Origin: an uncultured Lachnospiraceae bacterium
Lineage (GTDB): Bacteria; Bacillota; Clostridia; Lachnospirales; Lachnospiraceae
DNA length: 25,590 nucleotides
Direction of reading: 5' to 3'
Assembly (NCBI GenBank): GCA_946406305.1
Contig: CAMJKC010000001.1
Location: 1 to 25,590, forward strand
Position numbers and translations under genes: made by a program. Numbering within the stretch: the stretch's first letter is position 1; each line of letters opens with the position of its first letter. Positions 1-22,166 of this stretch are shown one piece after another. Under the pieces are notes generated by a model. It had not been told where the DNA came from and made no database searches. It saw only the letters and a program-made list of their open reading frames with translations.

Positions 1-47
1 AAAAAAATGAACACACATAGAGAAAAAATCCACATTTTATCGCAAAA

Positions 48-75
48 AAATGCTTTTTTTGACTAAAAAGCATTT
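48..75. repeat. Perfect 11-bp inverted repeat enclosing the -35 hexamer (operator or weak terminator)
   Basis: AAATGCTTTTT (48-58) / AAAAAGCATTT (65-75) with TTGACT as the 6-nt centre; extends by 3 more A/T pairs after one mismatch. Confidence 0.7.
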
Positions 76-87
76 CTTTTGTATAAT
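59..87 (+). promoter_or_regulatory. sigmaA/sigma70-type promoter of the giant gene
   Basis: TTGACT (59-64), 17-bp spacer, TATAAT (82-87); lies 70 nt upstream of the ATG at 158. Confidence 0.8.
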
Positions 88-92
88 TATAC
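81..92. repeat. Perfect 12-bp palindrome overlapping the -10 box
   Basis: GTATAATTATAC is its own reverse complement. Confidence 0.6.
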
Positions 93-147
93 TATAAAAA
101 TGGGACGGACTATGTTTTGTCTTTGTTTTTGTTTTTAAAAGAAAAAA

Positions 148-153
148 AAGGAG
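148..153 (+). promoter_or_regulatory. Shine-Dalgarno of giant ORF
   Basis: AAGGAG, 4 nt before ATG 158 (short spacing). Confidence 0.6.
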
Positions 154-157
154 AGTT

Positions 158-241
158 ATGTACTTAAAGAATCAGAAAATTATATCAATTATTTTAATTA
201 TTGCTTGTATGTTTGCTAATTCTGGTTTTAGTGTATTAGCG
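158..241 (+). other. Sec signal peptide (aa 1-28) of giant protein
   Basis: MYLKNQK (basic n-region), IISIILIIACMF (h-region), V-L-A|N signal peptidase I-type site; no canonical lipobox. Confidence 0.8.
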
Positions 242-3200
242 AATAGTTTTAATGTGCAAGTTGAAAATGAATTGAAAGAAAAATCTGAGTTAAAAAATTA
301 TTATGAAGAGTATATGAGTGAATATACTTCACTTTTAAGTGCAAAGGGTGTAAACGATGTTGATGAAGATATAGTTATGGACGAAATAATAGATGATGAT
401 ACTGTTAAATATAACAGGAGTGAAGAGAGTGAAGAAAATGAGATAAGTGAAGAAAGTGTAAAAGATGAAGAGAGCATAGAAGACGAAGAAAGTAATCTTG
501 ATAATCAAAAAGAAGAACCTGAAGAAGAACAAGACAAAACAGAAAAAGAGTCAACTGAAGAAGAAAAAGAGGAAGAGACAGAAGAAAGTAAAGAAGAGAC
601 AGAGGAAAAAAGAGAGGAGACAAAAAAATTAGAAGAAGAAACAACAAGTGAAACTAAAGAGGAAGCTCAAAATGAAAAAGATATTGTTGCTACAGAAAGT
701 GAATCAGAAGTTTTTGAAGTAGAAGAAAGTGAAGTCGCAACGGAAAGTGAGATAAAAGAAGAAGTTAATGTTGCAACAGAAAGCGAAACAGAAGATGATA
801 AAATAGATGATATAGAGTCTACAAAGAGTGAAACAGATGAGATAAAAATAAATGAAGATAATACATACGGTGCAGACATTAGAAATATTTCTACACTAAG
901 TGATGTTTTAGTTGCAACTTATTCAATAGTAGATTGGGAAATAGTAGAAGTGCTTTTGCCAGATATAACACAATCAAAAGCATTTGCAAAAGAGACTGAT
1001 TTTGAAATTATGGAAAATAGACTTGCAAAAACAGCAAGAGTGGTCATAAGAAATAAAGAAGGAAGAGAAGAAATAGTTAGAGTAAAAATAAAATGGAAAG
1101 TAAAAAACAGAATAGATGTAAATGCGCAAGATAGAGTGGATAAAACAATAGATGAATCTTATTTGCTTGAAGAGGTTAGAAAGAGAATTGGTGCTGATGA
1201 CGAAGAAGTGTCAACTGTTGAGATTTTGGCAACGACAAATGAAGCAAATGTTGTGAAAAAAATATATGATGAAATATCAGAATTAGTGGCAGACACAGAT
1301 ATAATAATCGTAGAAGACAAGGAAGCAGAAGTTTTATATGGAAAACTCATAGACATGGGTTATGATTCAAATAAAATAATAAACTACAATGAGTTAAACA
1401 AGAGTAAAGAAGATGAAGTTTACGAAGAGGAAATTTTTGAAAGTATAGAGAGTGAAAAAGTAGAAAGCACAGCAAGTAATATTGATGAAAATATAGAAAA
1501 TGATAAAATTGTAGACGAGATAGAAGAAGTGACTTTTGGAAAAGAAAACAATGAAGGTAAATTAGATTTTGAAGTAGATGAAGAAATAAAAGAAGAGTTT
1601 AATGAAACATATGAAACAAAAGAAGAGGAATCAAAGAAAGAAGATGTTGCTGAAGAAATAAATGTATTTGACGAAGACGGCAATTTAATAGAAGATGGAC
1701 AAGCCACTGGAGAGAAAGGTGAAGATATTGGGGCAGAAAATACGGGAACAGAAGTTGAAGTAAATAGAGTATATGACTATGAAGATGCGGCTCCAGGAAG
1801 TTTAAATTTGACAAAACATGACCAGTTGGCAAATTATGAAATATCAAATATTAGAGAGTTTGAGCTTGATATGGATTATCTAACTGAAAATCTTTTATAT
1901 GTACTTGAAAACAATATAATATATACAGAAGATGGCGAAGAAAAAAGTAAAGAAGAAAAAGAAGAAAAATACGAAGAGGAAAAAGAAGAAAATAATGGAA
2001 TAGTTGGCTTTATAAAAAATCTATTTTCTAACAATGAAGTTGATTATGAAACAGAAGATATGATAGATGAAGAAGAATATGTTTATGGTTATGGAAATGA
2101 GATAGAAGAAGTAAAAGACCCTATAGTAGAGGAAAATAACGCAAGCAGATTATATAGTAGTGAAAAATTAAATATACCAAAATTACAAGTTGCATCTTAT
2201 GTTCCTGCAGCAATTACAGACCACGAAAGAACAGGTCATAGAGCCTGTGGAGAGAGTAAAGATAAAGAGTGTACTCATAAAGATGCTATGTATATACATC
2301 AGGCATTGCAATATTCAAAATATACACCAAATGATGATATATTTAAGAAAAATACTATGTTCTCAGATACAAGAACTATGCCAACATATAATGTGGTCAA
2401 AGTAAATAGCATATATCTAACTGGAGATACGACGGTAGATGCTGTTTGGTCATTGTCATTTACAAAACCTTATACATCAGAAGAGTCTAATGTAAATGTG
2501 GAAGTAGGATATATAGAAAATAATCAAGCAGGTTTAGGAAAGAGTTTAAATATATGTTTAAATGGATATAATTTGAATTTTGGATTTAATTCTACAATAC
2601 AAGGTGTTGGAAGAATAAATATTTGTAACTGTTCAGCAACAAAAGAGAGCATCATAACTGCTGAAAATGAAGGAGAAATTTCAATAAGAGAAGATGGAAA
2701 AGTAGTTTCAAAATATGTTTATGGAAGACAAAACCCATGTATAAGAACTACAGGTATGGGAGTTTTCGGAGATATAAAAGTAAAAGATATTATAAATGAT
2801 GCATTGACAGGAACAGGAAATAGTGGACCTTACATAGCAGAGTGTTCAGCTTTCTATGGGTGGTTTAAACCTACAGAAATAGAAAAAGGAGAAGGAGAGG
2901 GCGAAGGAGGAAATGTAGGTTTTTACATATATGACTCAAAGAAAAAAGAAATTCCATTATATTATAGAATTGAAATTGATGGTGTAGATTTTGAAAATCT
3001 ATCAAGCCGAACTGGATCTGGAGGGGCTATCAATGCAGGAAATTTAAGTAGTGTAGTTATAATGAATACTACATTTACTGTATGTACGGCTTCAAATGCA
3101 GGAGGGGCTATTTGTGTAAATGCACAAAATTGTAATTTTGCAAATGTGACATTTGACAGATGTTCTTCAAGAGTTGCGGGTGGAGCGATATATGCAGAGT

Positions 3201-6200
3201 ACTATGGTGTGTATGGTGCACCTTATAAATATACATATGGTTCATCACATACTGAAAAGCAAGTGACACCAGTATTTGATTCAACAGGAAAAGACATTAA
3301 TTCATTTTTCTGCATGGAATTTAAAGATAATAGTGCTATAGGACAACCGGGAGAAGCTGGAGAAGAAAGAGTAGGAGGAAGAGGTGGAGCAATTGCACTT
3401 TTATATGTAAATAGTTTAACGAGGTTTGAACAAATAGAGGCAGTAAATAATTATGCAAATTTAAGCGGAGGTTTTATGTTGTGGCAAGACAGTAGCACAA
3501 GTAGTGACAATAAGCTTACAACAATGAAAACTATAATGTGTGATGGAAATAGTTCTTGTTATAGTGGTGGAACTATGGCAATAGTAAGTCAAGGTGAAGG
3601 GGATGGACATATAAATATACTTATTACTGGTAGCAAAGATGAAGAAACAGGAACGATTATGAATAGTACATTTAACAATACACTTGTTAAAGGTAATATG
3701 CCAGCAGAGATAGAATATGCAAGAAATGAAGACGGAACTATAAAAGAAAAAGAAACGGTTGCAGGTATAAAAGTGCCAGTATATGAAAAAGAATATTATG
3801 AAGTAATGGGACAAAATTATTACATGGGGTCATTTGGTGGAGCATTTTATATTGAAGGTTGTAAAATGCAAGTTGGTGAAAATGGAGTTGAAGGTGGAAA
3901 GGTAGAATTTATAAATTGTTATGCAAATGACGGAGGAGCAATTTATGTTCAACAACCAAGGTCAGCATATTTTTATAATAAGATAGGAGATAGTGTTTAC
4001 AAGCATTATGAATATGACTGGGAGGTAATAGAACAAAACAAATATCATTCAAAAGAAGATCAAAGTGTAATATTAGATATACCAAAATATACAAGTAGTG
4101 GTGCAACAGCAAGTGAAGCAAAGTATTATTATAATTCAAAATTATCTGAAGTAGTAGTAACAAATGCAAAATTTGAAAATTGTAAAACTCAAGATGGTGA
4201 TGATAAGACAATAAAAAATAGACTTCCAATATCAAGCGATGCACCAGAAGTTATGGGTAATTATGATGAGGGAGATGAGACAAAGACAGTAAAATATTTC
4301 ACAATGAGACAGTATCACACAAATACTGGTGGTGGGTGTATATATGTTGGTTATAAAGCAAATGTTAGCGTTGAAAATGATGTTAGCATATCTAAGTGTG
4401 TAGACCCTATATATTTGTGTAATGGAAATATTCAATTAAAAAATATATCAACAGGAAGTTTTGCGGCGGATAACACAGGTTCATACTTGTTTGGATATCC
4501 TTCTATAGCTGATATTGAAAATGTAATTACTCTTGATAATGTTGTTATCACAGGTTGTACTCTAAACAAGAACTCATTTTCACTTACAAATGCACCAGAT
4601 GATAATGAAAAACATGTGTATACAAAACTCATATTAAAAAATAAAGTTGTACTTGAAGATAATTATAAAAATGTCACGGATGCAGAAGGGACAACCACTT
4701 TTGTAGATATGGACTTATTCTTAAATCTTAGAACCATTGAGTGTATACTTGATAAAAGTCTTGACATAGACACTCATGTAGGAATATATCCAGATTTTAA
4801 AAAGGATCAACTTTTATTTGACTATTGGGACAGAGAACATTTGAAGTATTACGATGGTTTAGTTGTCTCAGAGATTTTTTATTTAAACAATGCAACAAAA
4901 GAAGATTCTGATTTTTACAATTATAGACTTTATAGAGATAACGAAAAAATATACATAGGGCAAGAATGGGATGAGATACATTTTGATATGGACTATCCAG
5001 AAAAAGACCATGCAGGAAATATGAGTCTTGAAGTGCCGTCTCATTTCATTTATAACAAGGCAACAGGTTCCATAGTATCAAAGCCAAGGAAAGTTTTTGA
5101 GAAAAACTTGGTAAATAATGAAGTTATAGTAAGGGAGTTAAACAAAGAAGGCGATTTTATAAAAGGATATTCTTATGTAGGATGGTTTGGAAGAGATGAG
5201 CAGACGAAGTATAAAGAAGAACCTTTTGTTGGTTGGGAATTTGAAGAAAATAAATTTAGAGGCTCTCTCTATACTGGACCTGATGGTTCGGCAAATGATG
5301 AGTATGCAAGAAGATTATTTGCAGTATTTACAGATAATACACTCGCTTTAAAAACTTGTGGAACAAAACTTGATGAAGAATGTGACCATGCAGATAAAAA
5401 TATGAAACACTATACACATAGGGGAGGAGCGACTGATAGCGAAGCAAAGCTTAAAAACTTTGTTGCAGTAGCTACTTTTGCACAACTTTATTATACTTAT
5501 GAAGGTAACAACTCACAATACATGTTGAAAAATGATGTATATATGACAGATAGCGATATACCTCTTAAGGGAAATAGAGTTATATACTTAAACGGATATA
5601 ACATATATATGGAAACAGATAAGCCTTTATTTGACTTTACAGATGATAGGGATATGGCATATAAAGAAGCACTGACAGAAGACTTGTCAGGATCTTATGA
5701 TGAAAATTTTGCTGGAGCTATAATAGGAGGAACAGCTGATAAAAAGGGTGGAATAATTTGGAGAAATAACAATAGGCAGCAAGAATTCATAAACACTGAT
5801 GGTAAAAAAATAATTTTGAAAAATGTATATTTAGAGGGATATAAGACAACAACTGACAACAAAAATATAAGCTTTATAAATGATAACACCGAAAAAGATG
5901 TAAAAGGAAACGGTGGAATATTTATAGAGGACAGTGTAATTAGAGACATTAAGACATATAGAGGAAGTTTGATAGAGGCACATAACTTGTATATGAAAGG
6001 TGTAACTATAGAAGAATGTGTATCATCAAATGTTGAATTAACAGGAGAAACAGAAGTAGATTATGACTTAGTGTCAGTTAAAGGTTGGGAAAATGCTCAA
6101 ACAAGTCAAGATATATATATAAGAGAAAGCACTTTTGACAATATAGTGAATGCAAAAAATTTATTTACAGCAAATTTGAATGCAGATGCGGCAAATAAAT

Positions 6201-9200
6201 CTACAGTTGTATTTGATTCTATATCTGTAACAACTTGTAGCCCTAAAGAGCACTTATTAAATATTATAAATGACAATAAAAATACTACTGTAGTGTTTAA
6301 AGGTGAAAATTATATAGAAGAAAATACATTAAAATCAAGTTACGAAGTCATTAATTTTGCAGGGACAAAAAAAGATGAAAATCATCTTCATATGAATGTT
6401 GAAGAAGGTACTACATATATAAGATATAATCACATAGAAGATGGCACAACTGTAGTGAATAATGTCAGAGCAGCATTAAACATGAGAAATGGTAACATAA
6501 GAATAGGTGGTCATTTAGAAATAACAGATAACTATTTTGACAATTATAGGACATCAACAACAATAGATGATGGACATGTAAATGCAGGAGTGTATGTTGG
6601 TGGGGAACAATCTCAAATTATTATGGCATCAGGTTCTTTCGTAGTTAAAGACAACAAAGGATTTAGGAATGGGGCTCCTGTTTCTTCAGTAGATAGCAAG
6701 GTATATCAAATATATGTAAATGCGAGCAGTAATATAAGGAGAGAAAAAGTTCTATTTCCACAAGAAGAGGGAACAAAAATGTGTGCATCAAAAACACAAG
6801 CATATATACATACAAAATATGCAGACAATAATGATTATTTAATATATGATGGCTGGTATGAGACAAATGTATCAGATCATAATACGACAGTGGATTCGCT
6901 TGCAAATAATACATTTATAATTGACGAGGTAAAAAGTTCTGGAGATAGCAGAAAAGTAGTTAAGCTTTATAATTTAAGTGAGACAAAGATATATATATCT
7001 GCAGATTTTTTGACTATACATTTTATGTTATACAACAGTAACAGAACAAGTCAAGAAGAAATAGGATTGCAATATATAAAAAATGGAATAGCTAATGAGC
7101 CAATTGAAACACAGCTTGAGAATCCAACAAAAGGGGAAAGAGTATTTTGGGAAGGGCCATCAAAACAATTTTTAACAAATAATAGAAATATTGTTTTCCA
7201 TAAAGATATGGAAGGGGCAACACTAACTCTCTTAAGTGCTGAAACTAAGGACTTTAATATGTATGGATATCAAAGTGATGAGCATAGACACGAATTAGCC
7301 TACGGTATTGACGATACAGAGTGTGACTATTGGGTAGATGCAAGCAAGCCAGAACATTTTGAAGTTAATGATGGAAATATCTTTTTAAGAAATGATATAA
7401 CTATAGACAAAGAAATGCTCGCAACACCAGTAGATAAGTATTCAATATGTTTAAATGGACACACTTTAAAAATAGCAAATGTTGAATGGTTTAAAGAAAC
7501 TGTAAATAATAATTATGATATTTATATTACAGATTGTAAGAAAACAGGTGCTATACAATTAGTAAATGGAAGTGGAAATGTAACAAAAACTCCTATAACG
7601 ATAGATGAAAATAGTTTAAATATTTCGGATGTGAGAATAATTGATTCAAATATTAGTGTTCCTGTGATAAGTGTAAATCAAAATGGAATATTAAGAACAA
7701 GAGGAGTTACATTTGAAAATGTTAAATTGTTATCAACAGACAATGAAGACAGAGCTGGAATATTTGACATTAATTCAAGTAATAAAGATTATAGTATAAA
7801 CAATATGTATTTAGTAGGTGGGGCAACGAAGAGCACATCAGACCACGAATTTTCAATTGTGAATTGTACTATGGGTAAAAACAAATCGGCAATTCATATA
7901 AAAAATGCAAAAATAGCAACAATAAATGAAGCTTATGTATATAACAATAGTGCAGAAACAAGCATATTTGATATAGAGAATTGCGGAGAAGTATACATAT
8001 CAAAAGGTTTATATCAAGGAAACAACATAACTGGAAATACAAACAATGTGACAGGAATATTTGACATAACAGGTGCTACATATACCTCTCTACAAGATGG
8101 TGCAGAGTTTGATTCAAATGTTGGTGGAGGAAATGGAGCAGTTATAAATACTACAAGTAGGTTGGTTCATATAGGAAGGAAACTTGGAGTTTCAGAATTA
8201 TATGATACCAAGTTTACGAACAACTCTGTCCCATCGGGCAAGAATGGAAGTGTAATATATGCAGGTGCATATGCGACAGTGGAGATTAATAATGCACTCA
8301 TAAATAATAACTTTAATGCAATATATGCAGCAGAGAATTCTGTGCTTACATTGAACAATACAGTTTTAACAGGAAACAGAGGGGCTTATGTTGTTGATTA
8401 CGAAAGAGGCGGAGGAAATGTAATCAACTTTATAAATACAAACATAACAGGAAATACATTTACAGAAGATGTTGTAGTAAGAACTCGAACAAATGTCGTA
8501 AAGACAATTCTTAATTTGTCTGGTGTAGTAAAGTATACAGAAAATAAAAAAATTATAAATGGAAGAACAGAAGAGTTTGATTTATATTTGCCAGACGATG
8601 ATACTGTTAAAGTTGTAGTGCCAGAGGGACATACATTAAGTGAAAATTCAAGAATTGGACTTTTGCCTATTAAGGCAGATATGAAGGTATTTGAATCTTG
8701 GAACAAGAATCGTATAGACCAATTTGGAGAAGGTGCAAGATTTGAAAAAATGTTTTATTATGACGCTGCTCCAAGCATTATGGATTATGATGCACTAGAT
8801 TATAAATTATTTAGGGATGGAGAAGAGTGGATTTCTGGTCCAAGTTATGATGAAATAAGTTATTATACAAAAAATAAATATTTAGATATTAACAAATTAG
8901 ATAGCACATATATCTATAAATATACAACAGGGACTCTAATAGATAAGCCAGAAATAACGACAAATTCTTATACATCATACAACACTTCATTTGTAGGCTT
9001 TATAGGAAGAAGTAAAAATACAACAACTGGTGGAGATTTTAAAAACTGGGATTTTAATACTGATTTAATGGTAGGAAGTGGAGTAAGAAATGAATATCAA
9101 TACGATAGAGTTTTGTATGCTATATTTACGGATGACAATATAAAATTAAAAGCCTGCGGACATACAGAAAACGAGGCTTGCTCACATGACAATGAGGTAA

Positions 9201-15200: not shown

Positions 15201-18200
15201 CAACAATGATTCATTTTACAGGAAGTGATAAGAATGTAAATAACCTTACTATATCTGGCATAAAGATGCTCACGAATACTATATATGATGAGTATGGTCT
15301 AATTATGTTAAACGGAGGAAGAGAAGTCAACATAAATGATATTGAGATAAGAAATAACAAATTATTTAATGCTTCACTAATAGATATTCTTGAAACAAGC
15401 GATATAGATATGTCAAATATAAAAATTGAGAATAATACTTTGACATCAAATAAGGCTGTTCCGTTGGTGCTTAATTTGACAAATTCAAATAATATGGTAA
15501 TAGATGGAATAGATGTATTAGGCAATAATTCTATAGGTGGAAGTGATGAAGGTATTATATCTATACTTGGAAATAGCACAGAAGTTAGTTTGAAGGGAAA
15601 TGTAAATATAGAGAAGAACTCTTTTGTAAACTATGGAGCTTTATATATCTCTGGTGCAGCATTAACTGCAAATAAAAACAGTTCTATTATATTAAGAGAT
15701 AACATAGCAACGGGAAGTTATGCAAATGCAGTTTATGCTGTAAACGCTCAAATGACATTACTTGGAGATAAGTTTGAGGTAGCTAAAAATAGTGGAGGAG
15801 AGCTTGGTGCAGTATATGTAAAAGATACAAACTTCTATGCAGCAAACAAAATATACATAAAAGAAAATAAAGACAGGAATAACATAAGTTCAAACTTGTA
15901 TTTAGCAGGAAACAGCTATATTAAAAAATATGAAACAGAAAAGATTTCAATGGATTCTTATATAGGAATCACAAAAGAAGAAAGTAAAAACAACACAATG
16001 GTATTTAATGGTTGGGGAAGAGAAAATGTTGAAGGATATAACAAAGGAGATTATTATTTCCCTCAAGCATTATTCTATGTTGATGAGAAGATAGAGGATA
16101 GAGGATGGAAGATTTATAGATATGGTCCAGAAGGGTTTATCTACATAGGAAGTAATTTTGTTGAACTCAAATTCTTGAGATATGATATGACAGAAATTGA
16201 TACAGAGTATATAGCAAAAAATGTCAGAACAGGAACTGACAAAATGACAATAGACAACTCAGATAGTTCAGCGATGTGGCAAGGGCCTATTGCTACTGAT
16301 GAAAACAGAAGAGATTACTGGGATATGGATAAAGATAGCGATGAAGAAAATGAAGTTTTATTATCAAAATCTAATTATGTCCGTTCTTTAATTCATGTTC
16401 ATAAAGATTGTGGCTTATTTGAGGGTAATAGTTGTAATCACTTAAACGGAGCAGTTCATTCAGAGAGTTCTAAATATACAAGTGTATATAGTGTGAATGA
16501 TTTTGACATAGCAAATTATGACCACTTTGCATTGTTTAGAGATATAGATATTACATCTAATACATTTGGAAATAGTTCAAAGAACTTGAATATATGTTTA
16601 AATGGCCACACAATGAGATTTGCAAGAGGAATGAATTGGCTTAATTTATCTTCTGGTCAAACTATGAATATTTGTGATTGCACAAAGAGTGGTAAAATTG
16701 AAACAAGCACTACTGATTTAGGAGGGAATTCATCACTCATAAATGTAACAAATGGAAGGCTTAATTTATATGGAATTACAATAAAAGACTTTGTGACATC
16801 TGGTGAAAATGGAAACATAATAAATGTAAATGAAAGAAACGCTCATTTATATGCTGAAGACATTGTCGTTGAAAATGTGAGGACAATAGGCGGAAATGTC
16901 ATTATGAGTGCAAATGGCAATGTGAATATAAAAGGAGCTAAATTTGCAAATTGTAACACAACAAGTACTAATTTACTATATGGAAATATAAATATATATA
17001 ATTCAACTTTTGACAACAACACAGGATTTTATGCTATGGTAAATGGCTTAGGCAGGATAGATGGTTGTAAATTTACAAACAATGTCACACAAGATAGTGA
17101 TGCAGCAGCAGTATATAGCATGGGATTTGAATTTACAGGGCACAATGAATTTGAAAAGAATGTAGTAAATGGAAATAGTGGAAGAGGTGGCGCTCTATTT
17201 ATTGATGGTGGAAACACAGGAAAGACAGTTTCGTTGGCAAGTATGTCATTTATAGAAAACTCTGCAAAAGATGGTGGTGCTATTTATGTAATAGGTGGAG
17301 TCACATTAAACTTACAAGAAGATATATATATGGCAGACAACACTAATACTATATATAACAACTCTTCTAAAGTAAACTTTGTTCATGTTGATGATTTATA
17401 TACAGAAAAAACGAGGGCAGTAAAAATTTTAGGTGCAAACGGAGAGTATGTTTTATCAAGTGATGTTTCAACTACGACATACTACTCTTTACTCAGTGGA
17501 AGAATAGTCAACACGAATGCAGACTTTACATATATAGCTTCAGCCAATAGCAACTTTAGTGGCTATATGTTTATGACATATGGAAGTAATTTGTTTATAG
17601 ATGGAGAGACAGAAGGAAGTGGTATATTCGTAACAGATGATGTACATGAATTATTCTACTCAGATAGCACACACAAAATAAATAAAAATACAAGACTTAG
17701 ATATTATGCAAATAAGAGAGATGTAAAAATATTAGACCAATTAAATGTAATAACAAATTATGGAGACGATTTTAAATTAAAAGATATTGTGACTATTGAC
17801 AATAAAAATAGAGAGGGAGCAGAAACTCCATATAGCATATATGAATATGGCGGACATGCATATATGGGATTCCCAAGAAGGAATTTGACAGTAAAAGCAA
17901 ATGGTGGATATTTTGTAAATCCAGATACTGGAGCTCATTATACAGAGTACACTATGGAAGTTGAAAAATATACACCTATTAACGATATAATTATACCAAC
18001 AAGAGGTAAATATGCATTTGTAGAATATAATACAAGACTTGGGAAAAATGTTGAAGGGGCAATGACTGTTACAAGTGGAATGGATTATTGGTCTGATGAA
18101 GATGAGACGATATATGCACTTTGGGAAACAGAGAAATATACAGTAAGGTTTAACAAAAATAACTCTCGTGCTGTAGGAACTATGTCAGAAATAAGAGTTG

Positions 18201-21200
18201 GAATAGAAGAGGTGTTTGATATGCCAAAACTTGGGTTTAATTTCCCAGGTGTAAAACTCGCTTATTGGCAACAAGATATAAAAGATAGTGCAGGAAGAGT
18301 GATAGGAATAGCAACTTATTCAGAGTTTGAGAAAAATATAGTCGGCATAGGGCAAGTTGATGAAATTGTAGTTTTGAATGCTATATGGGATATAAGAGTT
18401 CTTGACATAACATACGATAAAAACACCCCATTGTCACCACTTGGAGATGGTGAAAATGTGGTTACAGGAGATATGCCAACTCAACAAGTAATAATATATG
18501 AGAAAAAGAAGTTTGATGCAAGCGAATATAACCTACAAGGATATATATTTAGAGGATGGGATACGAAAAAAGTTGGGCCAGAGGAAGCAGAAGATAATGA
18601 TTATATAGTTCCTTATGGCAATAATGTAGATATACCTTTTGAAGAAGTATATGGGAAGTCAGATAATGGAAAAATTACTTTGTATGCGGTTTGGACAAGA
18701 AGAATATATAATGGCTATATACATGTAAATGATGCAAGAGAAAATATGGGAAGCACATATGCAAACTTTAGTGAAATAGGAGAAGGCGATACGGTAATAA
18801 CAGTTCCACTAAAATACGATACAGTGCTAAAAGACCTTCCTATAGGAGAAAGAAAAGGATATAAATTCGGATATTATACGAGAAATAGAAATGTGCCAGT
18901 AGAGAGTAAGGAAAGCTATGAAGATGTAATTAACAATACTACTGTGTCAAGGTTCACTGCCCCAGTAAATTTATATGCATTGTGGATAAATGAAAAATAT
19001 GAATTGAAGCTCAATATTAGAGATGGATATTGGGAAGATGGTAGCGAGAGTAAAACATTTAATGTATACTTTGATGAATTGCCTTTTGAAAATGAAAACA
19101 GCGTCAAACCAAAGAATGATAACTATAAATTTGATTATTGGAATAAGAGAGATGTAGATTACAAAGAATTGATTGTAAGCCAAGAAGTGTATGACAAAGA
19201 AAAAGAGAGCAATATGTTGAGTGGTGATGTGGGATATACATACGATGGAGATATGAATTTATATGCTGTATATTTCCCAACGAGAACAAATGTAGTATTT
19301 GATGTAAATGATAGTGAAGCAACATTTGAGATTGACGGTGTGAAGAGTAAGTTGGCAACATACTCTATAGCATTAAATGAAAGGATGTCTGAGAGCCTTG
19401 AGAAATTCCCTACACCTACGAAGAGCGGACATAGAATATCTTATTGGAGTTTAAATAAAGAAGATAACGGACAAGATATAATTGATGAAAATACTATATG
19501 GAAATATATATCTGAGTATACGAAGGTATATGCACACTATGTCACAGGTTCATACAATATCAAATATAGTCCTGGAAAAGCTGGAAGTGAAGTAGAAGGT
19601 GTGATGGAAGGTGAAAACGGAATAAAATTTGACGAACCACATAAAATTTCAAAAACAAAATACAAATGGGATAAGCACACACAAGTAGGTTGGTATATAA
19701 ATAATCCACAACTTGATGAAAATGGAAATCCTTATGCGATAGAAATAGTTGGCAAACAAGAAAAAGTAACGACATTATTTGGTTTAGATGCAACAGTTAA
19801 AAACTTGACAAATGTAAATGATGCGACAGTTGAGCTTGTGGCAGCTTGGGATACTTTTGAAAGAGTTTATTATATAAACTTCCATCAATCAACGCCATCA
19901 ACACCTGCAGCAGGAGCAGAAAATATAGTTAAAGGAGAAATGAAAACTCAAAGAGCTTCTTTGATTAAGTCGGAAGTAATAAATGAAAATAAATTTGAGT
20001 TAGAGGGCTATAAGTTTGAGCATTGGGTAACTGCAAGTGGGCGAATAATAAAAGATAAAGAAGTGATAAGACCTTTAGTAGAAGAAGAAAATGAGACAAT
20101 AGATTTGTATGCTGTATGGAGCAAGAAACAATATGTATGGAATTATGCGTTCCCAAGGAAGACACAAGAAATATCTACAACATCATACATAGCTACTTAC
20201 GACACAGTAATAACAATTCCAGATGTGACATTTACAAATCCTGTTTATGAGATATGGGGTTGGTCACTTGTAGAAGACAATACGGATTATGCAACTTACG
20301 AAGAAGCATATCCACATATAATAAATGAAGACAATGTTAAAAATATAGTTTGTAGAGGAGAGGGAACATTATACCCAATAATGCACAAGAAATTTTTAGA
20401 GATTATATATGTGACAGATACAGGGGTAGAACTTGAACTTGAGGATATGCCAGGATATATAGTGCCAGGACTTGATGTTTTAATACCTGTGCCAGAAAGA
20501 AAAGATGCTGAGTTTGACGGATGGGGTGAAAGTGAATATATTCCAAAAGTTTCATCAGAAAGTCAAACAAGTAGATATAAGGGCAGCTTTACTATACCTG
20601 CAAAATCACAAGAAGAGATAAGAAATATGGATGACATAACATTTGTGACTTATTGGTTAGCTGGTAAATACAAGATAATACTAAATAACAATGGAAGAGG
20701 TAAGACACCAGAAGGTAATACTACATATACAATTGATGCAAGAGTAGATGAAAATGTGACACTTCCAAGAGTATTTACGAGAAATGTATCATCATCATAT
20801 TATTTGTCATCATATAATACAGAATCTAATGGACAAGGAAAATCATATAGTGCAGGCACTGTATATACAAATATAGCAAAAGAAAACGAGACAATAACTC
20901 TTTATGCTATATGGGCAAGGGCAAGCAGTGGAGGTGGCAATACAGGTGGTTCATCAGGAGGTTCAAATAGTGCGAACTTCACAAGACCAAGCACGAATAC
21001 AAATAACACTATTAACTTGCCTAACAATATAACGATAGTTGGAAATTTGATAAATAGTACAGGTGGCAGCATGCCAAACATAATTCAAATAGGTATGGGG
21101 GTAGGCAATGTAGTAGAGGTAGTAGGAGCTGTAAGACAGACTCAACCTTCAGTAGATGTAACATTAGATCCAGTAAGTGATGTTCAATGGACAAGAAACC

Positions 21201-22060
21201 CTGTTACAAATAAATGGCAAGCAAGGTCAAATAAATATGGACTCCTTACAAATTGGAATTATATAAGATATAATAATCAAGCAAATTGGTATTATTTTGA
21301 GCCACAGACAGGAGACATGGTAACAGGTTGGATTTCATTAAATAATAAAAACTATTTCCTTGAACCAAACAACGAATCTGGATATATGGTAAAAGGATAT
21401 AGACAAATAAATGGAAATACATATTTATTTGCCGAAGATGGAAACTTGTTGCAAGCAAATAGTCCAAATATGATTGCGGCAAATACAACATACCTCTCTA
21501 ATGCTGGAGGACAAGCAAATAGTAACTGGGAATATGACCCTAATACAAATAGTTGGAAGTACTTTGATGTATCTTCAACAGGTGCGAGAACATATTACAC
21601 AAGCGGATGGTTTAGTTTAACAACAAATGGAAAATCAAATTGGTATTTATTTGATGCGCTTGGCAATATGCAAACTGGATGGATAGAAAATAATGGCAGG
21701 TATTATTATTTAAGCGAAAAAAATGATGGAAACAAAGGTGCAATGCTTACAGGTTGGCAAGTAATAAATGGACAAAATGTATATTTTGGAGAAGATGGGT
21801 TGCTTGTTCAAGGGAGTCCACAAGGTGTAATAAAAGTGCAAAAAGTTTTAACTAACAAAGATTTAGCAAGTAAAGTTGGAGCGAATATAACGGCACTATC
21901 AAATACAGTTATATGGAATAACGACCAAGCATTAAATCAATTATTAGGAAGAATGGTTTATAATGGGACAGCATTTAGTGCAAGTTTTTCAATTAACTAT
22001 AACAGCCAACTTATGAATGAATTAAAAACTATAATATATAGGATTAAACATTATAAATAG
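158..22060 (+). CDS. Giant (7300 aa) secreted, cell-wall-associated surface protein / putative adhesin with tandem beta-helix modules, InlB-B-like repeats and C-terminal choline-binding-like repeats
   Basis: Uninterrupted ORF with promoter, SD and N-terminal signal peptide. Contains GGAI/FxxN rung motifs, 8 copies of an (C/N/Y)LN(G/H) head, 11 Flg_new-like units ending LYAxW, and WYxF..GxMxTGW repeats at the C-terminus. The adhesin function is inferred. Confidence 0.9.
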   Translation: MYLKNQKIISIILIIACMFANSGFSVLANSFNVQVENELKEKSELKNYYEEYMSEYTSLLSAKGVNDVDEDIVMDEIIDDDTVKYNRSEESEENEISEESVKDEESIEDEESNLDNQKEEPEEEQDKTEKESTEEEKEEETEESKEETEEKREETKKLEEETTSETKEEAQNEKDIVATESESEVFEVEESEVATESEIKEEVNVATESETEDDKIDDIESTKSETDEIKINEDNTYGADIRNISTLSDVLVATYSIVDWEIVEVLLPDITQSKAFAKETDFEIMENRLAKTARVVIRNKEGREEIVRVKIKWKVKNRIDVNAQDRVDKTIDESYLLEEVRKRIGADDEEVSTVEILATTNEANVVKKIYDEISELVADTDIIIVEDKEAEVLYGKLIDMGYDSNKIINYNELNKSKEDEVYEEEIFESIESEKVESTASNIDENIENDKIVDEIEEVTFGKENNEGKLDFEVDEEIKEEFNETYETKEEESKKEDVAEEINVFDEDGNLIEDGQATGEKGEDIGAENTGTEVEVNRVYDYEDAAPGSLNLTKHDQLANYEISNIREFELDMDYLTENLLYVLENNIIYTEDGEEKSKEEKEEKYEEEKEENNGIVGFIKNLFSNNEVDYETEDMIDEEEYVYGYGNEIEEVKDPIVEENNASRLYSSEKLNIPKLQVASYVPAAITDHERTGHRACGESKDKECTHKDAMYIHQALQYSKYTPNDDIFKKNTMFSDTRTMPTYNVVKVNSIYLTGDTTVDAVWSLSFTKPYTSEESNVNVEVGYIENNQAGLGKSLNICLNGYNLNFGFNSTIQGVGRINICNCSATKESIITAENEGEISIREDGKVVSKYVYGRQNPCIRTTGMGVFGDIKVKDIINDALTGTGNSGPYIAECSAFYGWFKPTEIEKGEGEGEGGNVGFYIYDSKKKEIPLYYRIEIDGVDFENLSSRTGSGGAINAGNLSSVVIMNTTFTVCTASNAGGAICVNAQNCNFANVTFDRCSSRVAGGAIYAEYYGVYGAPYKYTYGSSHTEKQVTPVFDSTGKDINSFFCMEFKDNSAIGQPGEAGEERVGGRGGAIALLYVNSLTRFEQIEAVNNYANLSGGFMLWQDSSTSSDNKLTTMKTIMCDGNSSCYSGGTMAIVSQGEGDGHINILITGSKDEETGTIMNSTFNNTLVKGNMPAEIEYARNEDGTIKEKETVAGIKVPVYEKEYYEVMGQNYYMGSFGGAFYIEGCKMQVGENGVEGGKVEFINCYANDGGAIYVQQPRSAYFYNKIGDSVYKHYEYDWEVIEQNKYHSKEDQSVILDIPKYTSSGATASEAKYYYNSKLSEVVVTNAKFENCKTQDGDDKTIKNRLPISSDAPEVMGNYDEGDETKTVKYFTMRQYHTNTGGGCIYVGYKANVSVENDVSISKCVDPIYLCNGNIQLKNISTGSFAADNTGSYLFGYPSIADIENVITLDNVVITGCTLNKNSFSLTNAPDDNEKHVYTKLILKNKVVLEDNYKNVTDAEGTTTFVDMDLFLNLRTIECILDKSLDIDTHVGIYPDFKKDQLLFDYWDREHLKYYDGLVVSEIFYLNNATKEDSDFYNYRLYRDNEKIYIGQEWDEIHFDMDYPEKDHAGNMSLEVPSHFIYNKATGSIVSKPRKVFEKNLVNNEVIVRELNKEGDFIKGYSYVGWFGRDEQTKYKEEPFVGWEFEENKFRGSLYTGPDGSANDEYARRLFAVFTDNTLALKTCGTKLDEECDHADKNMKHYTHRGGATDSEAKLKNFVAVATFAQLYYTYEGNNSQYMLKNDVYMTDSDIPLKGNRVIYLNGYNIYMETDKPLFDFTDDRDMAYKEALTEDLSGSYDENFAGAIIGGTADKKGGIIWRNNNRQQEFINTDGKKIILKNVYLEGYKTTTDNKNISFINDNTEKDVKGNGGIFIEDSVIRDIKTYRGSLIEAHNLYMKGVTIEECVSSNVELTGETEVDYDLVSVKGWENAQTSQDIYIRESTFDNIVNAKNLFTANLNADAANKSTVVFDSISVTTCSPKEHLLNIINDNKNTTVVFKGENYIEENTLKSSYEVINFAGTKKDENHLHMNVEEGTTYIRYNHIEDGTTVVNNVRAALNMRNGNIRIGGHLEITDNYFDNYRTSTTIDDGHVNAGVYVGGEQSQIIMASGSFVVKDNKGFRNGAPVSSVDSKVYQIYVNASSNIRREKVLFPQEEGTKMCASKTQAYIHTKYADNNDYLIYDGWYETNVSDHNTTVDSLANNTFIIDEVKSSGDSRKVVKLYNLSETKIYISADFLTIHFMLYNSNRTSQEEIGLQYIKNGIANEPIETQLENPTKGERVFWEGPSKQFLTNNRNIVFHKDMEGATLTLLSAETKDFNMYGYQSDEHRHELAYGIDDTECDYWVDASKPEHFEVNDGNIFLRNDITIDKEMLATPVDKYSICLNGHTLKIANVEWFKETVNNNYDIYITDCKKTGAIQLVNGSGNVTKTPITIDENSLNISDVRIIDSNISVPVISVNQNGILRTRGVTFENVKLLSTDNEDRAGIFDINSSNKDYSINNMYLVGGATKSTSDHEFSIVNCTMGKNKSAIHIKNAKIATINEAYVYNNSAETSIFDIENCGEVYISKGLYQGNNITGNTNNVTGIFDITGATYTSLQDGAEFDSNVGGGNGAVINTTSRLVHIGRKLGVSELYDTKFTNNSVPSGKNGSVIYAGAYATVEINNALINNNFNAIYAAENSVLTLNNTVLTGNRGAYVVDYERGGGNVINFINTNITGNTFTEDVVVRTRTNVVKTILNLSGVVKYTENKKIINGRTEEFDLYLPDDDTVKVVVPEGHTLSENSRIGLLPIKADMKVFESWNKNRIDQFGEGARFEKMFYYDAAPSIMDYDALDYKLFRDGEEWISGPSYDEISYYTKNKYLDINKLDSTYIYKYTTGTLIDKPEITTNSYTSYNTSFVGFIGRSKNTTTGGDFKNWDFNTDLMVGSGVRNEYQYDRVLYAIFTDDNIKLKACGHTENEACSHDNEVSYVVRGGSESGSEEAKYKNYVSVSTTAQLFYKYNDEISTQYILENDLTVPDGLESITCQVLNLNGHNINVLNSKNAAFAIGNGKNNSGVSETEKTGFIVSGYGKVGTITGQSNIMYKKGLFTDTYNEGERDSIFMSNINIANFDTNKNPQDVNSMMLFEKNTVLENVDVSYMKTSTTLFKANDIKLKNVSFLNNEVQNGSIIEFVNGYKSSNTGISLNGDILIENNTVTITENIPEIKLVSKETAINVSLLSDSNFSLSNNKIINQYNFREGTEVRASMFYMKKGATSTIEFLSDVDFLDNSFEGFGDIANTYTSNMRIDSFARIDIGEIYLDIATPSAVGVSRNYGIEVDNYNTAYSLLSQKANTQLIASCSHISVGYINLPTTAEQLLYEGWYYQKVKGYNEGNFTANTVFTTVESPTNYIYKSGTQGNANVYIGAYSKIATLQIIERDDILGDVLYSTQYIKGGVETSIERVKNFDVINTLTRWSGPSRDGQETILYTNDIIKKGTEILIVTVPLGETRAIMGEVVGNHVHSPVIGIEGYDPVAYDSLRTRSDFGKNYAHYYLQTDVVIGASVDWMIPGDVHSLCLNGHTLTFRAGTNYLTATNKNIFITDCKGDGKIVFSGGSSTSNSPAFLLTGGNINISNVTFSGISKKFIEANDVDRINIVNVKITESGNTINQPAIINAKGVNVASISNIDIATNSNAVIGLESVNQLLMSDIKMRGNALTGTEALFVMDKIATGSITGGIYKGNSSSTSPIFYHIKNNSKINISNIEDFSENEGGGIYVVNSTVEMNNIKPKSNAIETGINGSIVTVGEQGDVKIKNSIINENKNPVYVRKNATLRMEKLEMNYNTGSYAFGYSIGEGNKIYIEDSDISFNEFRENLNLTLPVSNVEKTIIYVSGTVTMNMSERFTTAGNGTIDLYLPSDEHVIMRTPDGKKLNAASSIGILPIKADTKIYDTWDKDHVEEGANFENIFYYDSFRSMIDYANLKYRLFKDNSNIMSGPSYEEVKFYVEKTEANINVSISPIYIYKKSTGTLIDEPIVNAEEYTSRGYTFAGFVGRNETGEITTWDFSKNKMVGSEVRNNLPYDRTLYMVVTDDNVKLKACGLREDEACNHDSNTTHMVRGGNQSGSERAKYLNYVMVSTVAQLFYEYQADSEKYSTQYILKNDITISNGLSSITAQVINLNHNTIYVENETNTPFMPGSGSNNKLINDGVESYGFIVDSNDYSLPRGKIVGRSNLGYKKGIIGDDLSKGDREGIFIGNIDILSFDNQNLSQDVNGMINTIRDTYLENVKIGDIYSKCSILNTNTIYMKDVEIVGCITHNSHLINVVNNYSSKRIFAISNIVNIDENNVYSSGTTQNSLININANVDFRLLADSNIEITKNKIHARQRASSRDTENSAQLINLLQNANSDDQILGKISVIENGFYGFERFTTNHIRSIYIDNLSPITLGDVYINISDPVVDGLSIETASIGIGNYSMSRAIFKQKENTQLLANESVIDFDCYNLPSGTSQFVYGGWYHTNVKDYNAGLFTVEDVFKVVNNEEAVIYKSNRDNNSNVYIGRKANLGRIEFVEQDGEEGSNNVLKVQYVAPGIHTSFERIKEFNYGDDYDWTGPDTEGVETIIYEEDKIATNTNALYTKVNRGDVKYVKGDLNSLHVHELVVGSEEFNKEASFRGIKKAESINGSYEYVYLKKDIVVNDTGSLWGIANGRLGICLNGHKLIFSGGVNYLDDMNASIFITDCKGTGEISNVGSSTNIIPAMLVANGGVHISNINITNMTNPLIMGADIDKFSMINSKFINNNVSKINPIIDIDGVLSDATVKNIEISNNSSSIMRLDYVKDMVVSDINIHDNNLKEDAPIFIISEAKGSIKNIKFENNKKEIADSVNAAMLLIQGEASDIVIDGDNYINGNTLAGRGTIITINTGGKVEVKNVKASSNKGSGYMIKNLKDNISLSLNNIEFRDSEGQELYGIYSNDINSEGRASISEITFENNKMATMIHFTGSDKNVNNLTISGIKMLTNTIYDEYGLIMLNGGREVNINDIEIRNNKLFNASLIDILETSDIDMSNIKIENNTLTSNKAVPLVLNLTNSNNMVIDGIDVLGNNSIGGSDEGIISILGNSTEVSLKGNVNIEKNSFVNYGALYISGAALTANKNSSIILRDNIATGSYANAVYAVNAQMTLLGDKFEVAKNSGGELGAVYVKDTNFYAANKIYIKENKDRNNISSNLYLAGNSYIKKYETEKISMDSYIGITKEESKNNTMVFNGWGRENVEGYNKGDYYFPQALFYVDEKIEDRGWKIYRYGPEGFIYIGSNFVELKFLRYDMTEIDTEYIAKNVRTGTDKMTIDNSDSSAMWQGPIATDENRRDYWDMDKDSDEENEVLLSKSNYVRSLIHVHKDCGLFEGNSCNHLNGAVHSESSKYTSVYSVNDFDIANYDHFALFRDIDITSNTFGNSSKNLNICLNGHTMRFARGMNWLNLSSGQTMNICDCTKSGKIETSTTDLGGNSSLINVTNGRLNLYGITIKDFVTSGENGNIINVNERNAHLYAEDIVVENVRTIGGNVIMSANGNVNIKGAKFANCNTTSTNLLYGNINIYNSTFDNNTGFYAMVNGLGRIDGCKFTNNVTQDSDAAAVYSMGFEFTGHNEFEKNVVNGNSGRGGALFIDGGNTGKTVSLASMSFIENSAKDGGAIYVIGGVTLNLQEDIYMADNTNTIYNNSSKVNFVHVDDLYTEKTRAVKILGANGEYVLSSDVSTTTYYSLLSGRIVNTNADFTYIASANSNFSGYMFMTYGSNLFIDGETEGSGIFVTDDVHELFYSDSTHKINKNTRLRYYANKRDVKILDQLNVITNYGDDFKLKDIVTIDNKNREGAETPYSIYEYGGHAYMGFPRRNLTVKANGGYFVNPDTGAHYTEYTMEVEKYTPINDIIIPTRGKYAFVEYNTRLGKNVEGAMTVTSGMDYWSDEDETIYALWETEKYTVRFNKNNSRAVGTMSEIRVGIEEVFDMPKLGFNFPGVKLAYWQQDIKDSAGRVIGIATYSEFEKNIVGIGQVDEIVVLNAIWDIRVLDITYDKNTPLSPLGDGENVVTGDMPTQQVIIYEKKKFDASEYNLQGYIFRGWDTKKVGPEEAEDNDYIVPYGNNVDIPFEEVYGKSDNGKITLYAVWTRRIYNGYIHVNDARENMGSTYANFSEIGEGDTVITVPLKYDTVLKDLPIGERKGYKFGYYTRNRNVPVESKESYEDVINNTTVSRFTAPVNLYALWINEKYELKLNIRDGYWEDGSESKTFNVYFDELPFENENSVKPKNDNYKFDYWNKRDVDYKELIVSQEVYDKEKESNMLSGDVGYTYDGDMNLYAVYFPTRTNVVFDVNDSEATFEIDGVKSKLATYSIALNERMSESLEKFPTPTKSGHRISYWSLNKEDNGQDIIDENTIWKYISEYTKVYAHYVTGSYNIKYSPGKAGSEVEGVMEGENGIKFDEPHKISKTKYKWDKHTQVGWYINNPQLDENGNPYAIEIVGKQEKVTTLFGLDATVKNLTNVNDATVELVAAWDTFERVYYINFHQSTPSTPAAGAENIVKGEMKTQRASLIKSEVINENKFELEGYKFEHWVTASGRIIKDKEVIRPLVEEENETIDLYAVWSKKQYVWNYAFPRKTQEISTTSYIATYDTVITIPDVTFTNPVYEIWGWSLVEDNTDYATYEEAYPHIINEDNVKNIVCRGEGTLYPIMHKKFLEIIYVTDTGVELELEDMPGYIVPGLDVLIPVPERKDAEFDGWGESEYIPKVSSESQTSRYKGSFTIPAKSQEEIRNMDDITFVTYWLAGKYKIILNNNGRGKTPEGNTTYTIDARVDENVTLPRVFTRNVSSSYYLSSYNTESNGQGKSYSAGTVYTNIAKENETITLYAIWARASSGGGNTGGSSGGSNSANFTRPSTNTNNTINLPNNITIVGNLINSTGGSMPNIIQIGMGVGNVVEVVGAVRQTQPSVDVTLDPVSDVQWTRNPVTNKWQARSNKYGLLTNWNYIRYNNQANWYYFEPQTGDMVTGWISLNNKNYFLEPNNESGYMVKGYRQINGNTYLFAEDGNLLQANSPNMIAANTTYLSNAGGQANSNWEYDPNTNSWKYFDVSSTGARTYYTSGWFSLTTNGKSNWYLFDALGNMQTGWIENNGRYYYLSEKNDGNKGAMLTGWQVINGQNVYFGEDGLLVQGSPQGVIKVQKVLTNKDLASKVGANITALSNTVIWNNDQALNQLLGRMVYNGTAFSASFSINYNSQLMNELKTIIYRIKHYK
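245..2137 (+). repeat. Glu/Asp-rich low-complexity N-terminal region (about aa 30-660)
   Basis: Runs such as EEEKEEETEESKEETEEKREE and EEKSKEEKEEKYEEEKEE; three VATESE copies at 686-703, 734-751 and 770-787. Confidence 0.85.
3020..4345 (+). repeat. Pmp-like GGA(I/F) / FxxN beta-helix rungs in module 1
   Basis: GSGGAINA, NAGGAICV, VAGGAIYA, RGGAIAL, FGGAFYI, DGGAIYV, GGGCIYV and FKDNSA resemble the chlamydial Pmp repeat (PF02415-like); similar GGALF/GGAIY/FIENSA motifs occur in module 8. Confidence 0.7.
7283..14182 (+). repeat. Two diverged tandem copies of an A+B super-repeat (1170 aa and 1130 aa)
   Basis: Copy 7283-10792 aligns co-linearly with copy 10793-14182, e.g. DLYLP..IGLLPIKAD..FYYD..SGPSYDE vs DLYLP..IGILPIKAD..FYYD..SGPSYEE, and KLKACG..EACxH..VRGG..VSTxAQLFY in both; a more diverged copy spans about 2222-7282. 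Confidence 0.85.
17876..20923 (+). repeat. 11 tandem InlB B-repeat / Listeria-Bacteroides (Flg_new, PF09479-like) domains (aa 5907-6922)
   Basis: Units of about 85-105 aa with Y/FxV/IxF/Y start, central GYxFxGW-like motif and terminal TIYALW, VLNAIW, TLYAVW, NLYALW, NLYAVY, KVYAHY, LVAAW, DLYAVW, TLYPIM, FVTYW, TLYAIW. Confidence 0.8.
20924..20971 (+). other. Gly/Ser flexible linker
   Basis: SSGGGNTGGSSGGSNS immediately after the last B-repeat. Confidence 0.75.
21188..21811 (+). repeat. Two homologous blocks of cell-wall/choline-binding-like repeats (PF01473/PF19127-like), aa 7011-7099 and 7124-7218
   Basis: NWYYFEPQTGDMVTGWISLNNKNYFL..GYMVKGYRQINGNTYLFAEDG and NWYLFDALGNMQTGWIENNGRYYYL..GAMLTGWQVINGQNVYFGEDG. 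Confidence 0.85.
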
Positions 22061-22137: not shown

Positions 22138-22166
22138 TTGACAAAAAAAAGAAGAAGAGTTATAAT
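22138..22166 (+). promoter_or_regulatory. Consensus sigmaA promoter of iscS-iscU-recJ
   Basis: TTGACA (22138-22143), 17 bp, TATAAT (22161-22166): perfect consensus; SD GGAG at 22185-22188. Confidence 0.88.

Follow-up and report, generated by a model that had tools for sequence, protein, structure and literature searches.

The closest described analogues of the gene product reported here are the Giant1-5 proteins of Apilactobacillus kunkeei. These have 3,000–8,000 residues, occupy 90 kb, i.e. 6% of a 1.5-Mb genome, carry a signal peptide and are detected in the supernatant; they combine a disordered N-terminus with an SRRP-like β-solenoid, an extended stalk and a C-terminus that is positively charged and binds the wall (PMC12863079). 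The β-solenoid of the Limosilactobacillus reuteri SRRP (5ny0) binds epithelium, DNA and polyanionic plant and host glycans (PMC5866549). Among the stalk domains recognised in fibrillar adhesins is Flg_new (Monzon et al., PMC9210967), and large proteins of mammalian-gut Clostridia combine Listeria-Bacteroides and glucan-binding repeats, probably for adhesion (West-Roberts et al., bioRxiv 10.1101/2023.11.21.568195). The chlamydial Pmp proteins and the passengers of type V autotransporters such as Vag8 (PMC11166332, PMC10715098, PMC2997323) were also compared. Here we describe a gene for a protein of 7300 residues in a 25,590-nucleotide stretch of DNA ('the window'; contig CAMJKC010000001.1 of assembly GCA_946406305.1) from an uncultured Lachnospiraceae bacterium.

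We consider it likely that this protein of ~817 kDa is a Sec-exported fibrillar adhesin, tethered non-covalently to the cell wall, a function deduced wholly from sequence and structural models. A distal putative adhesive region, a repetitive stalk and surface-anchor-type repeats are united in one secreted polypeptide, which fits the architecture of fibrillar adhesins. An earlier note, made from the letters of the sequence, had proposed an undescribed giant surface adhesin or appendage. The architecture that it outlined holds, adhesion is our interpretation, as it was that of the note, and instead of founding a new kind of system the protein falls within the known class of giant Gram-positive fibrillar surface proteins. 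What is new and unusual is the serial-solenoid architecture, together with an unannotated module family.

Comparison with known systems

The protein shares with Giant1-5 a Sec signal peptide, a small Gram-positive genome of which ~6% is spent on giants (here ~110 kb of 1.68 Mb), a disordered N-terminus, a β-solenoid, a repetitive shaft, a basic C-terminus of the non-covalent wall-binding type, an Asn-rich composition and multiple paralogues. No sequence relationship to the Giant1-5 family was detected, and neither DUF5776 nor an SH3b-like C-terminus was found in any segment. Giant1-5 possess one N-terminal solenoid and an α-helical stalk, whereas eight capped solenoids and B-repeat-like β domains are present here, and the anchor consists of cell-wall-binding repeats, unlike the DUF5776/SH3b-like C-terminus of Giant1-5. 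The resemblance is one of working principle, not of family membership. The parallel with the A. kunkeei giants suggests that giant adhesins have arisen convergently in Gram-positive bacteria with reduced genomes.

The layout also resembles that of the Firmicutes adhesins with Flg_new stalks (PMC9210967), in which an unannotated, putatively adhesive N-terminal region is followed by a tandem stalk and a C-terminal anchor. The present protein is far larger, however, its 'head' is a 5,200-residue chain of eight β-helices, and its B-repeats are too diverged to be called by Pfam. With pneumococcal choline-binding proteins, CROPs (combined repetitive oligopeptides) and glucan-binding repeats it has the repeat family of the C-terminal block in common, but this domain alone; no toxin, autolysin or glucosyltransferase catalytic domain accompanies it. 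Two further assignments were ruled out. An SRRP would carry serine-rich repeats, an accessory Sec system (aSec) with a second SecA, and LPXTG; none of these was found (S+T amounts to at most 23% per 200-residue window). As regards Pmp proteins and autotransporters, no C-terminal β-barrel translocator was found with Pfam or NCBIfam, and the C-terminus is made of wall-binding repeats. Moreover, in contrast to the Pmp systems the host is a monoderm Firmicute by its Lachnospiraceae affiliation, and Pmp-like motifs occur in just two of the eight modules.

An intact frame of 7300 codons

The gene is a single, stop-free open reading frame of 7300 codons (158..22060, forward strand, as are all features of the gene given below), read directly from the window sequence. 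The GC content of the window is ~30%, at which a random frame meets a stop approximately every 12 codons; chance can thus not produce 7300 open codons and the frame is coding beyond doubt. The uninterrupted 21.9-kb frame of the earlier note was hence confirmed. The encoded protein is strongly acidic, with an overall pI of 4.7.

The window represents the entire contig C1 of a fragmented, short-read metagenome-assembled genome (MAG; 1.68 Mb, 224 contigs, 81.6% complete), and the gene begins 157 bp from the contig end. Such a source, together with the odd 'joints' seen in the low-complexity acidic region of some metagenomic contigs, raises the question of whether the long frame is an artefact, i.e. 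a repeat mis-assembly or a non-functional relic. This is effectively refuted and of negligible probability. The 7300 codons remain open at 30% GC; with an identity of no more than 48%, the internal copies cannot have confused an assembler; two independent assemblies yield collinear orthologues of 7314 and 7291 residues; exact contigs are present in independent DNA and RNA runs; and every joint has sides shorter than 30 letters and is flagged as unreliable.

Export and wall-binding repeats

Residues 1–30 (158..247) form a Sec-type signal peptide with a K-rich n-region, a hydrophobic core and a VLA|NS site. It contains the sole strongly hydrophobic 19-mer of the protein (Kyte–Doolittle value 2.23 at residue 8; the runner-up reaches 1.44), and a pattern ..NSGF.VLA.. 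is common to the orthologues and to the paralogues P0005 and P0006. A lipoprotein reading of Cys17 ('IIAC') was rejected; the Cys is not present in the orthologue P0003, and a lipobox is therefore unlikely. The acidic low-complexity region that follows (residues 31–690, 248..2227) has a pI of 4.06 and contains 19–35% D+E, with a possibly folded island at residues 236–450. Its DNA carries short GAA-rich tandem repeats, and it is aligned to P0003 with gaps at 34–40% identity. Big_4, an Atlas lead for the island (residues 235–450), was too weak to use (0.84).

At the other end of the protein, a linker rich in G, S and N (residues 6921–7035, 20918..21262, by composition) leads to cell-wall-binding repeats of the choline-binding/CROP/glucan-binding type (residues 7036–7230, 21263..21847). 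Choline_bind_3 (PF19127, PF01473 repeat type) matches in five stretches with 65.2 bits against a cut-off of 27, and structures in the PDB matched by this block are the TcdA CROPs (2.6e-24), CbpF and the glucan-binding domain of GtfS. From residue 6921 on, the C-terminal block is basic (pI 8.9). The whole protein contains no [LIV]PxTG motif and no second strongly hydrophobic stretch, and SLH gave no match at E≤1 in the segment scans. Hydrophobicity scan, composition, motif search and segment scans therefore agree with the earlier description of a signal peptide, an acidic region, a C-terminal block of non-covalent wall-binding type and no LPXTG, SLH or transmembrane anchor. A tail of 70 residues closes the protein (7231–7300, with the stop 21848..22060); with 29% identity to P0003 it is conserved less than any other part. 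All three orthologues have this tail, but it is missing from the paralogues that were inspected, P0005 and two giants of genome G004, in which wall-binding-repeat-like sequence runs to the end.

The same type of wall-binding repeat occurs in at least 20 other open reading frames of the genome. A LicD is encoded on contig C34 (124.6 bits), and a 619-residue fusion of a winged helix, a LicC-like nucleotidyltransferase and a LicA/APH-like kinase has the gene of a 327-residue choline-binding-repeat protein directly downstream (G000:C41:4591-7437; L033:496-3342). This suggests phosphocholine-type wall decoration in a Lachnospiraceae. Only one SecA and no second was found, and no sortase was found in the genome (82% complete). 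The gene set fits general Sec export and non-covalent display of the choline type, with the tethering itself deduced.

These repeats can be read in another way, namely as belonging to a released matrix scaffold or aggregation factor, in which they would attach to an exopolysaccharide or to a glycan of foreign or host origin, and would cross-link cells or biofilm. Besides choline-binding proteins, the C-terminal block matches glucosyltransferase glucan-binding domains and the TcdA CROPs, and cell-free supernatant was found to contain the A. kunkeei giants (PMC12863079). However, the many frames with the same repeat type fit a general display on the cell's own wall, as do the LicD and LicC/LicA-like genes, one of them beside a repeat protein, and the block is basic as in wall-binding anchors. 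A released scaffold is therefore regarded as unlikely.

Eight modules of the β-helix type

Eight motifs of the LNG(H/Y) or LNHN type (residues 801, 1811, 2432, 3077, 3603, 4203, 4735 and 5481), each preceded by a cap, bear out the eight modules that had been counted from the sequence alone. A His/Cys cap opens each module, and the LNG(H/Y) strand follows ~60–100 residues further on, succeeded by the right-handed β-helix and one or more small β domains. The CG-x6-C-x-H cap (A-type; residues 697, 1734, 3000, 4123 and 5418) usually has a further His 6–7 residues on and an LNG strand without Cys. The HxH cap (B-type; residues 2376, 3546, 4676 and 5413) is combined with an invariant pair, C(LNGH) and ITD-C, 27 residues or approximately one rung apart. 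The two forms are mutually exclusive except in modules 1 and 8, which have both (residues 697–5508, nt ~2246–16681). The His/Cys cap could represent either a disulfide or a metal (Zn) site; in the model, the A-type cap has a pLDDT (predicted local distance difference test) below 50, at which its geometry is not readable.

Module 1 (residues 691–1733, 2228..5356) is enlarged and Cys-rich, with a CG-x6-C-x-H cap and the sequence ICLNGY. Modules 2, 4 and 6 are of the A-type and homologous to each other: module 2 (residues 1734–2370, 5357..7267) has its cap at 1734 and LNGY at 1811, module 4 (residues 3000–3540, 9155..10777) was modelled as a β-helix, and module 6 (residues 4123–4670, 12524..14167), with its cap at 4123, is 30–48% identical to module 4. 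Modules 3, 5 and 7 are of the B-type. Module 3 (residues 2371–2999, 7268..9154), assigned by the B-type alignment, shows HxH at 2376, CLNGH at 2432 and ITDC at 2457, module 5 (residues 3541–4122, 10778..12523) was modelled as a β-helix with post-helix β domains, and the enlarged module 7 (residues 4671–5410, 14168..16387) has HxH at 4676 and CLNGH at 4735. Module 8 (residues 5411–5905, 16388..17872) combines both caps (HVH and CG-x6-C-x-H) with two GGA(I/L) rungs.

Self-comparison revealed an A+B super-repeat of ~1,130 residues (2700–3830 against 3830–4960, 30–48% identity) and an older copy at ~1381–2700. In profile–profile comparison the A- and B-type modules are homologous across 460 columns (probability 98.6%, E 7e-16), and homology also connects the C-terminal third of module 1 with the B-type helix end, the post-helix domains and the stalk (hhalign 99.6%). 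On account of these two homologies, all eight are variants of one ancestral module. A three-stranded, right-handed β-helix was modelled for one A-type and one B-type module and extends to the remaining modules by profile homology, except for the helix body of module 1. This could be neither modelled nor aligned; the AlphaFold2 model, computed from 8 sequences, was poor (pLDDT 49.9) and was left out of the fold searches. The earlier assignment of β-helices thus stands by modelling in two modules and by homology in others, but not for this helix body.

Database profiles give little hold on the family. With Pfam and NCBIfam, applied to long pieces and to segments of 800–900 residues, only the wall-binding repeats were found, plus sub-threshold Beta_helix, Flg_new and Chlam_PMP. 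The Pfam profile Beta_helix (PF13229) reached at best 21.3 bits, in module 7, below its gathering cut-off of 25.9, which is attained only in a distant relative, P0010 (31.4 bits). Chlam_PMP remained at 13.9 bits, under its cut-off of 20.6, and the NCBIfam profile POMP_repeat (TIGR01376) scored 18.3 bits in module 8 (cut-off 15). GGA[ILV] motifs, of which seven are present against 0.36 expected and five are paired with F/I/V-xx-N/C, are confined to modules 1 and 8; six of nine GG(A/G)-hydrophobic rung motifs lie in module 1. The nearest Atlas clusters of module 1 are Bacillota β-helix/Chlam_PMP/Flg_new proteins. Since neither Pfam nor NCBIfam detects the module family, genes of this kind are currently annotated as 'hypothetical'. 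A periscope-type array of near-identical tandem repeats was also considered and rejected: the only DNA repeats are the short GAA-rich ones of the acidic region, and in view of the lack of near-identical tandem DNA repeats this is not a length-variable periscope array.

β-Helices are also the fold of enzymes such as PL6 lyases, AlgE and phage depolymerases, and in fold comparison the scores of AlgE4, PL6 lyases and tailspikes match those of Vag8 and SRRP. Some or all modules might accordingly be lyases, hydrolases or epimerases acting on plant or microbial glycans, making the protein a surface-displayed multi-enzyme. However, no carbohydrate-active enzyme, lyase or glycoside hydrolase family was significant in Pfam or NCBIfam, and a profile search of the module alignments against PDB sequences gave nothing significant, the best match being to the pectate lyase 1ee6 (E 0.028). 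No acidic/basic catalytic constellation is conserved across the modules, in which the invariant helix positions are mostly Asn. The internal helix bodies furthermore evolve fastest (17–30% identity), contrary to expectation for a catalytic groove. Lacking a catalytic family match and a catalytic constellation, and with helix bodies that diverge rapidly, the enzymatic explanation is weakened and appears improbable.

The stalk

Eleven units of 83–103 residues, each with a LYAxW-like motif at its end, could be aligned between residues 5906 and 6920 (17873..20917), in agreement with the eleven B-repeat-like domains that had been counted before. For Pfam the block is below threshold (PF09479 Flg_new, 18.9 bits, gathering cut-off 27), with weak matches in four of the eleven units (best E 0.0035). 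A profile of the eleven units matched only InlB B-repeat structures in the PDB, and these weakly (2y5p, E 0.0017). The block is nevertheless linked by BLAST to repeats in paralogues of the same genome (E 6e-16 to 1e-20), and the repeats of the paralogue on contig C6 score 123.7 bits with Flg_new. The InlB match and this link to Flg_new-scoring repeats led us to read the units as diverged B-repeats, which likely places the stalk in the B-repeat/Flg_new family.

Orthologues and conservation

A search for full-length orthologues, which had been suggested with the original description, yielded two collinear ones: P0002 (7314 residues, 82% identity) and P0003 (7291 residues, 42.5%). In an uncultured Lachnospiraceae bacterium MAG, a 131-kb contig carries the 7294-residue open frame to which P0003 corresponds. 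The intact frame hence has collinear counterparts in two other species. When 1.84 billion cluster representatives were searched exhaustively with HMMER, only 12 related clusters emerged, some of the shorter relatives carrying the same HxH...LNGH cap. All 12 are unnamed ENA or Logan metagenomic proteins; as had been surmised, no characterised protein is among these relatives. Module 1 alone gave no relatives among proteins of 574–1827 residues in a word-indexed search, and two scans of Joint Genome Institute (JGI) metagenome contigs gave none either. Among 40 related genomes, matches were obtained in 7 of 12 from the same genus (1.2–2.1 Mb each) and in 0 of 28 from other genera. On sequence evidence, this is an unannotated, genus-restricted module family.

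Conservation along the protein is uneven. Relative to P0003, module 1 (59–62%) and the wall-binding repeats (63%) stand above the overall identity of ~44%, as compared to 45% in the B-repeats, 35–46% in the internal modules and 17–30% in the helix stretches. Module 1 is the best conserved module, with 60% identity also to the orthologue in genome G009; the latter (42% identity) is too saturated for a dN/dS ratio. Such a pattern is expected if tip and anchor are conserved and the exposed shaft between them evolves fast. In a tree of nine A+B units, these group by position and not by species (100/100 for u1 and u3, 68 for u2). The duplications consequently took place before the species separated, and the modules have since been retained individually, without being homogenised.

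A rod of this kind might serve without any dedicated ligand, as part of a dense brush of long acidic molecules that forms a non-specific protective coat or spacer against phages, predators or host factors. The pI of 4.7, the polyanionic tip of 660 residues, the rapid divergence of the exposed helices and the several giant paralogues, together ~6–7% of the assembly, are in keeping with such a coat. But the conservation of the distal module 1 clearly exceeds that of the remaining protein, suggesting that the tip has a specific function, and the nearest structural relatives include bona fide adhesins. We therefore hold a mere coat to be very unlikely, more so than either a released scaffold or a multi-enzyme.

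Giant paralogues in the genome and the genus

At least seven more open frames of 2,300–6,540 residues are present in the genome (contigs C6, C13, C23, C32, C46, C65 and C76), including those of 6,540 residues on C6, 6,229 on C13 (open at both ends), 4,633 on C23, 4,358 on C32 and 2,891 on C65. They share caps, B-repeats or wall-binding repeats with the 7300-residue protein, and several take up a whole contig and are truncated on either side. If the gene described here is included, the frames above 2,300 residues sum up to ~110 kb, i.e. 6–7% of the 1.68-Mb assembly. In other genomes of the genus the matches lie in open frames of 4,333–12,889 residues, often in tandem. In one that is 98% complete, genes for 6,212 and 12,889 residues stand head to tail on the minus strand within 57 kb (G004:C1:27433-84797; L015-L018); the 12,889-residue frame ranks among the larger bacterial proteins.

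Proposed organisation and its significance

According to the wall-tethered adhesin model, the C-terminal repeats would attach the protein to a wall polymer of the producing cell, probably one that carries phosphocholine, while the B-repeats and internal helices would form a stiff, segmented shaft. The enlarged, conserved module 1, situated below a floppy polyanionic N-terminal region, is the candidate ligand-binding head. By analogy with the SRRP β-solenoid, a glycan or polyanionic surface, on plant material, host epithelium or another microbe, is the best guess for its ligand. The fast-diverging internal helices may mainly act as spacers or as a variable exposed surface. With ~25 residues and 0.48 nm per rung plus 3–4 nm per small domain, the fully extended length would be of the order of 100–170 nm, a figure to be read as a maximum, since the inter-module angles are not predicted.

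Several points weigh against this model. The proposed head, module 1, is the module that was not modellable at a pLDDT of 49.9. The fold cannot separate adhesins from β-helix enzymes, as both score equally. Repeats of the wall-binding type also bind foreign glycans in toxins and glucan-binding proteins, for which reason tethering to the own wall is not proven, and with a genome 82% complete the absence of a sortase means only that none was found. The evidence for expression is likewise qualified. Near-identical sequence is present in sheep and goat gut metagenomes and in one sheep-gut metatranscriptome; in this RNA run 26 of 33 contigs are at least 99% alike to the gene, and eight of the listed contigs, 261–483 nt in length, match without substitution, spread over nt 1651 to 18695. 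The gene is thus probably transcribed along its length, with the reservation that the RNA library may contain DNA and was compared without a silent control stretch.

To our knowledge, nothing is known about how uncultured, small-genome ruminant Lachnospiraceae hold on to their niche. Because a genome of ~1.7 Mb spends several per cent on giant surface proteins, the fibres are probably central to its ecology, with attachment to feed particles, epithelium or other microbes as possible roles. A more far-reaching scenario is put forward as speculation, and we would sooner doubt it than adopt it: a genome-reduced (1.2–2.1 Mb) rumen or gut Lachnospiraceae genus may have evolved its own family of His/Cys-capped, possibly metal-clasped β-helices, built into wall-tethered fibres of 4,000–13,000 residues that take up ~4–7% of the genome. 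The lifestyle might then be obligately attached, epibiotic or bound to host surfaces, with the tip binding a specific partner and the internal helices varying to escape phages or immunity. Beyond rumen microbial ecology, the findings are relevant to domain annotation, as a defined capped β-helix module would make such genes identifiable in rumen metagenomes at large; the protein is, in addition, a naturally occurring example of a rod in which β-solenoids are arranged in series.

Local context and minor observations

A σ70-type promoter-like site, TTGACT-17 nt-TATAAT (59..87), with 11 of 12 consensus matches, precedes the gene, and a Shine-Dalgarno sequence AGGAG is read directly 4 bases before the ATG start codon (149..160).

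In the DNA runs X2 and X3, window positions 1–2000 showed a very high summed depth (31–594) and, in the GAA-rich acidic region, numerous joints with short sides. The picture resembles low-complexity cross-mapping from other organisms and not structural variation. The joints in X3 were dismissed as real breaks; their sides of 20–25 letters in low-complexity sequence are unreliable. Contigs of the RNA run X1 showed a 1-nt deletion at 1714 and an A inserted after 9447, at a depth of 2–4 and absent from the DNA runs. These are probably low-depth homopolymer errors and not real frameshift variants.

Downstream of the giant gene lie housekeeping genes for a NifS/IscS-like cysteine desulfurase (22196-23383), a NifU_N scaffold (23394-23831) and RecJ (23818-25530), the last of which overlaps nifU by 14 nt. 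The nifS-like gene has its own promoter site with 12 of 12 consensus matches (22138-22166), and the giant gene is therefore probably monocistronic. The nifS-like, nifU and recJ genes are unrelated to it, and the orthologue in G009 has other neighbours.
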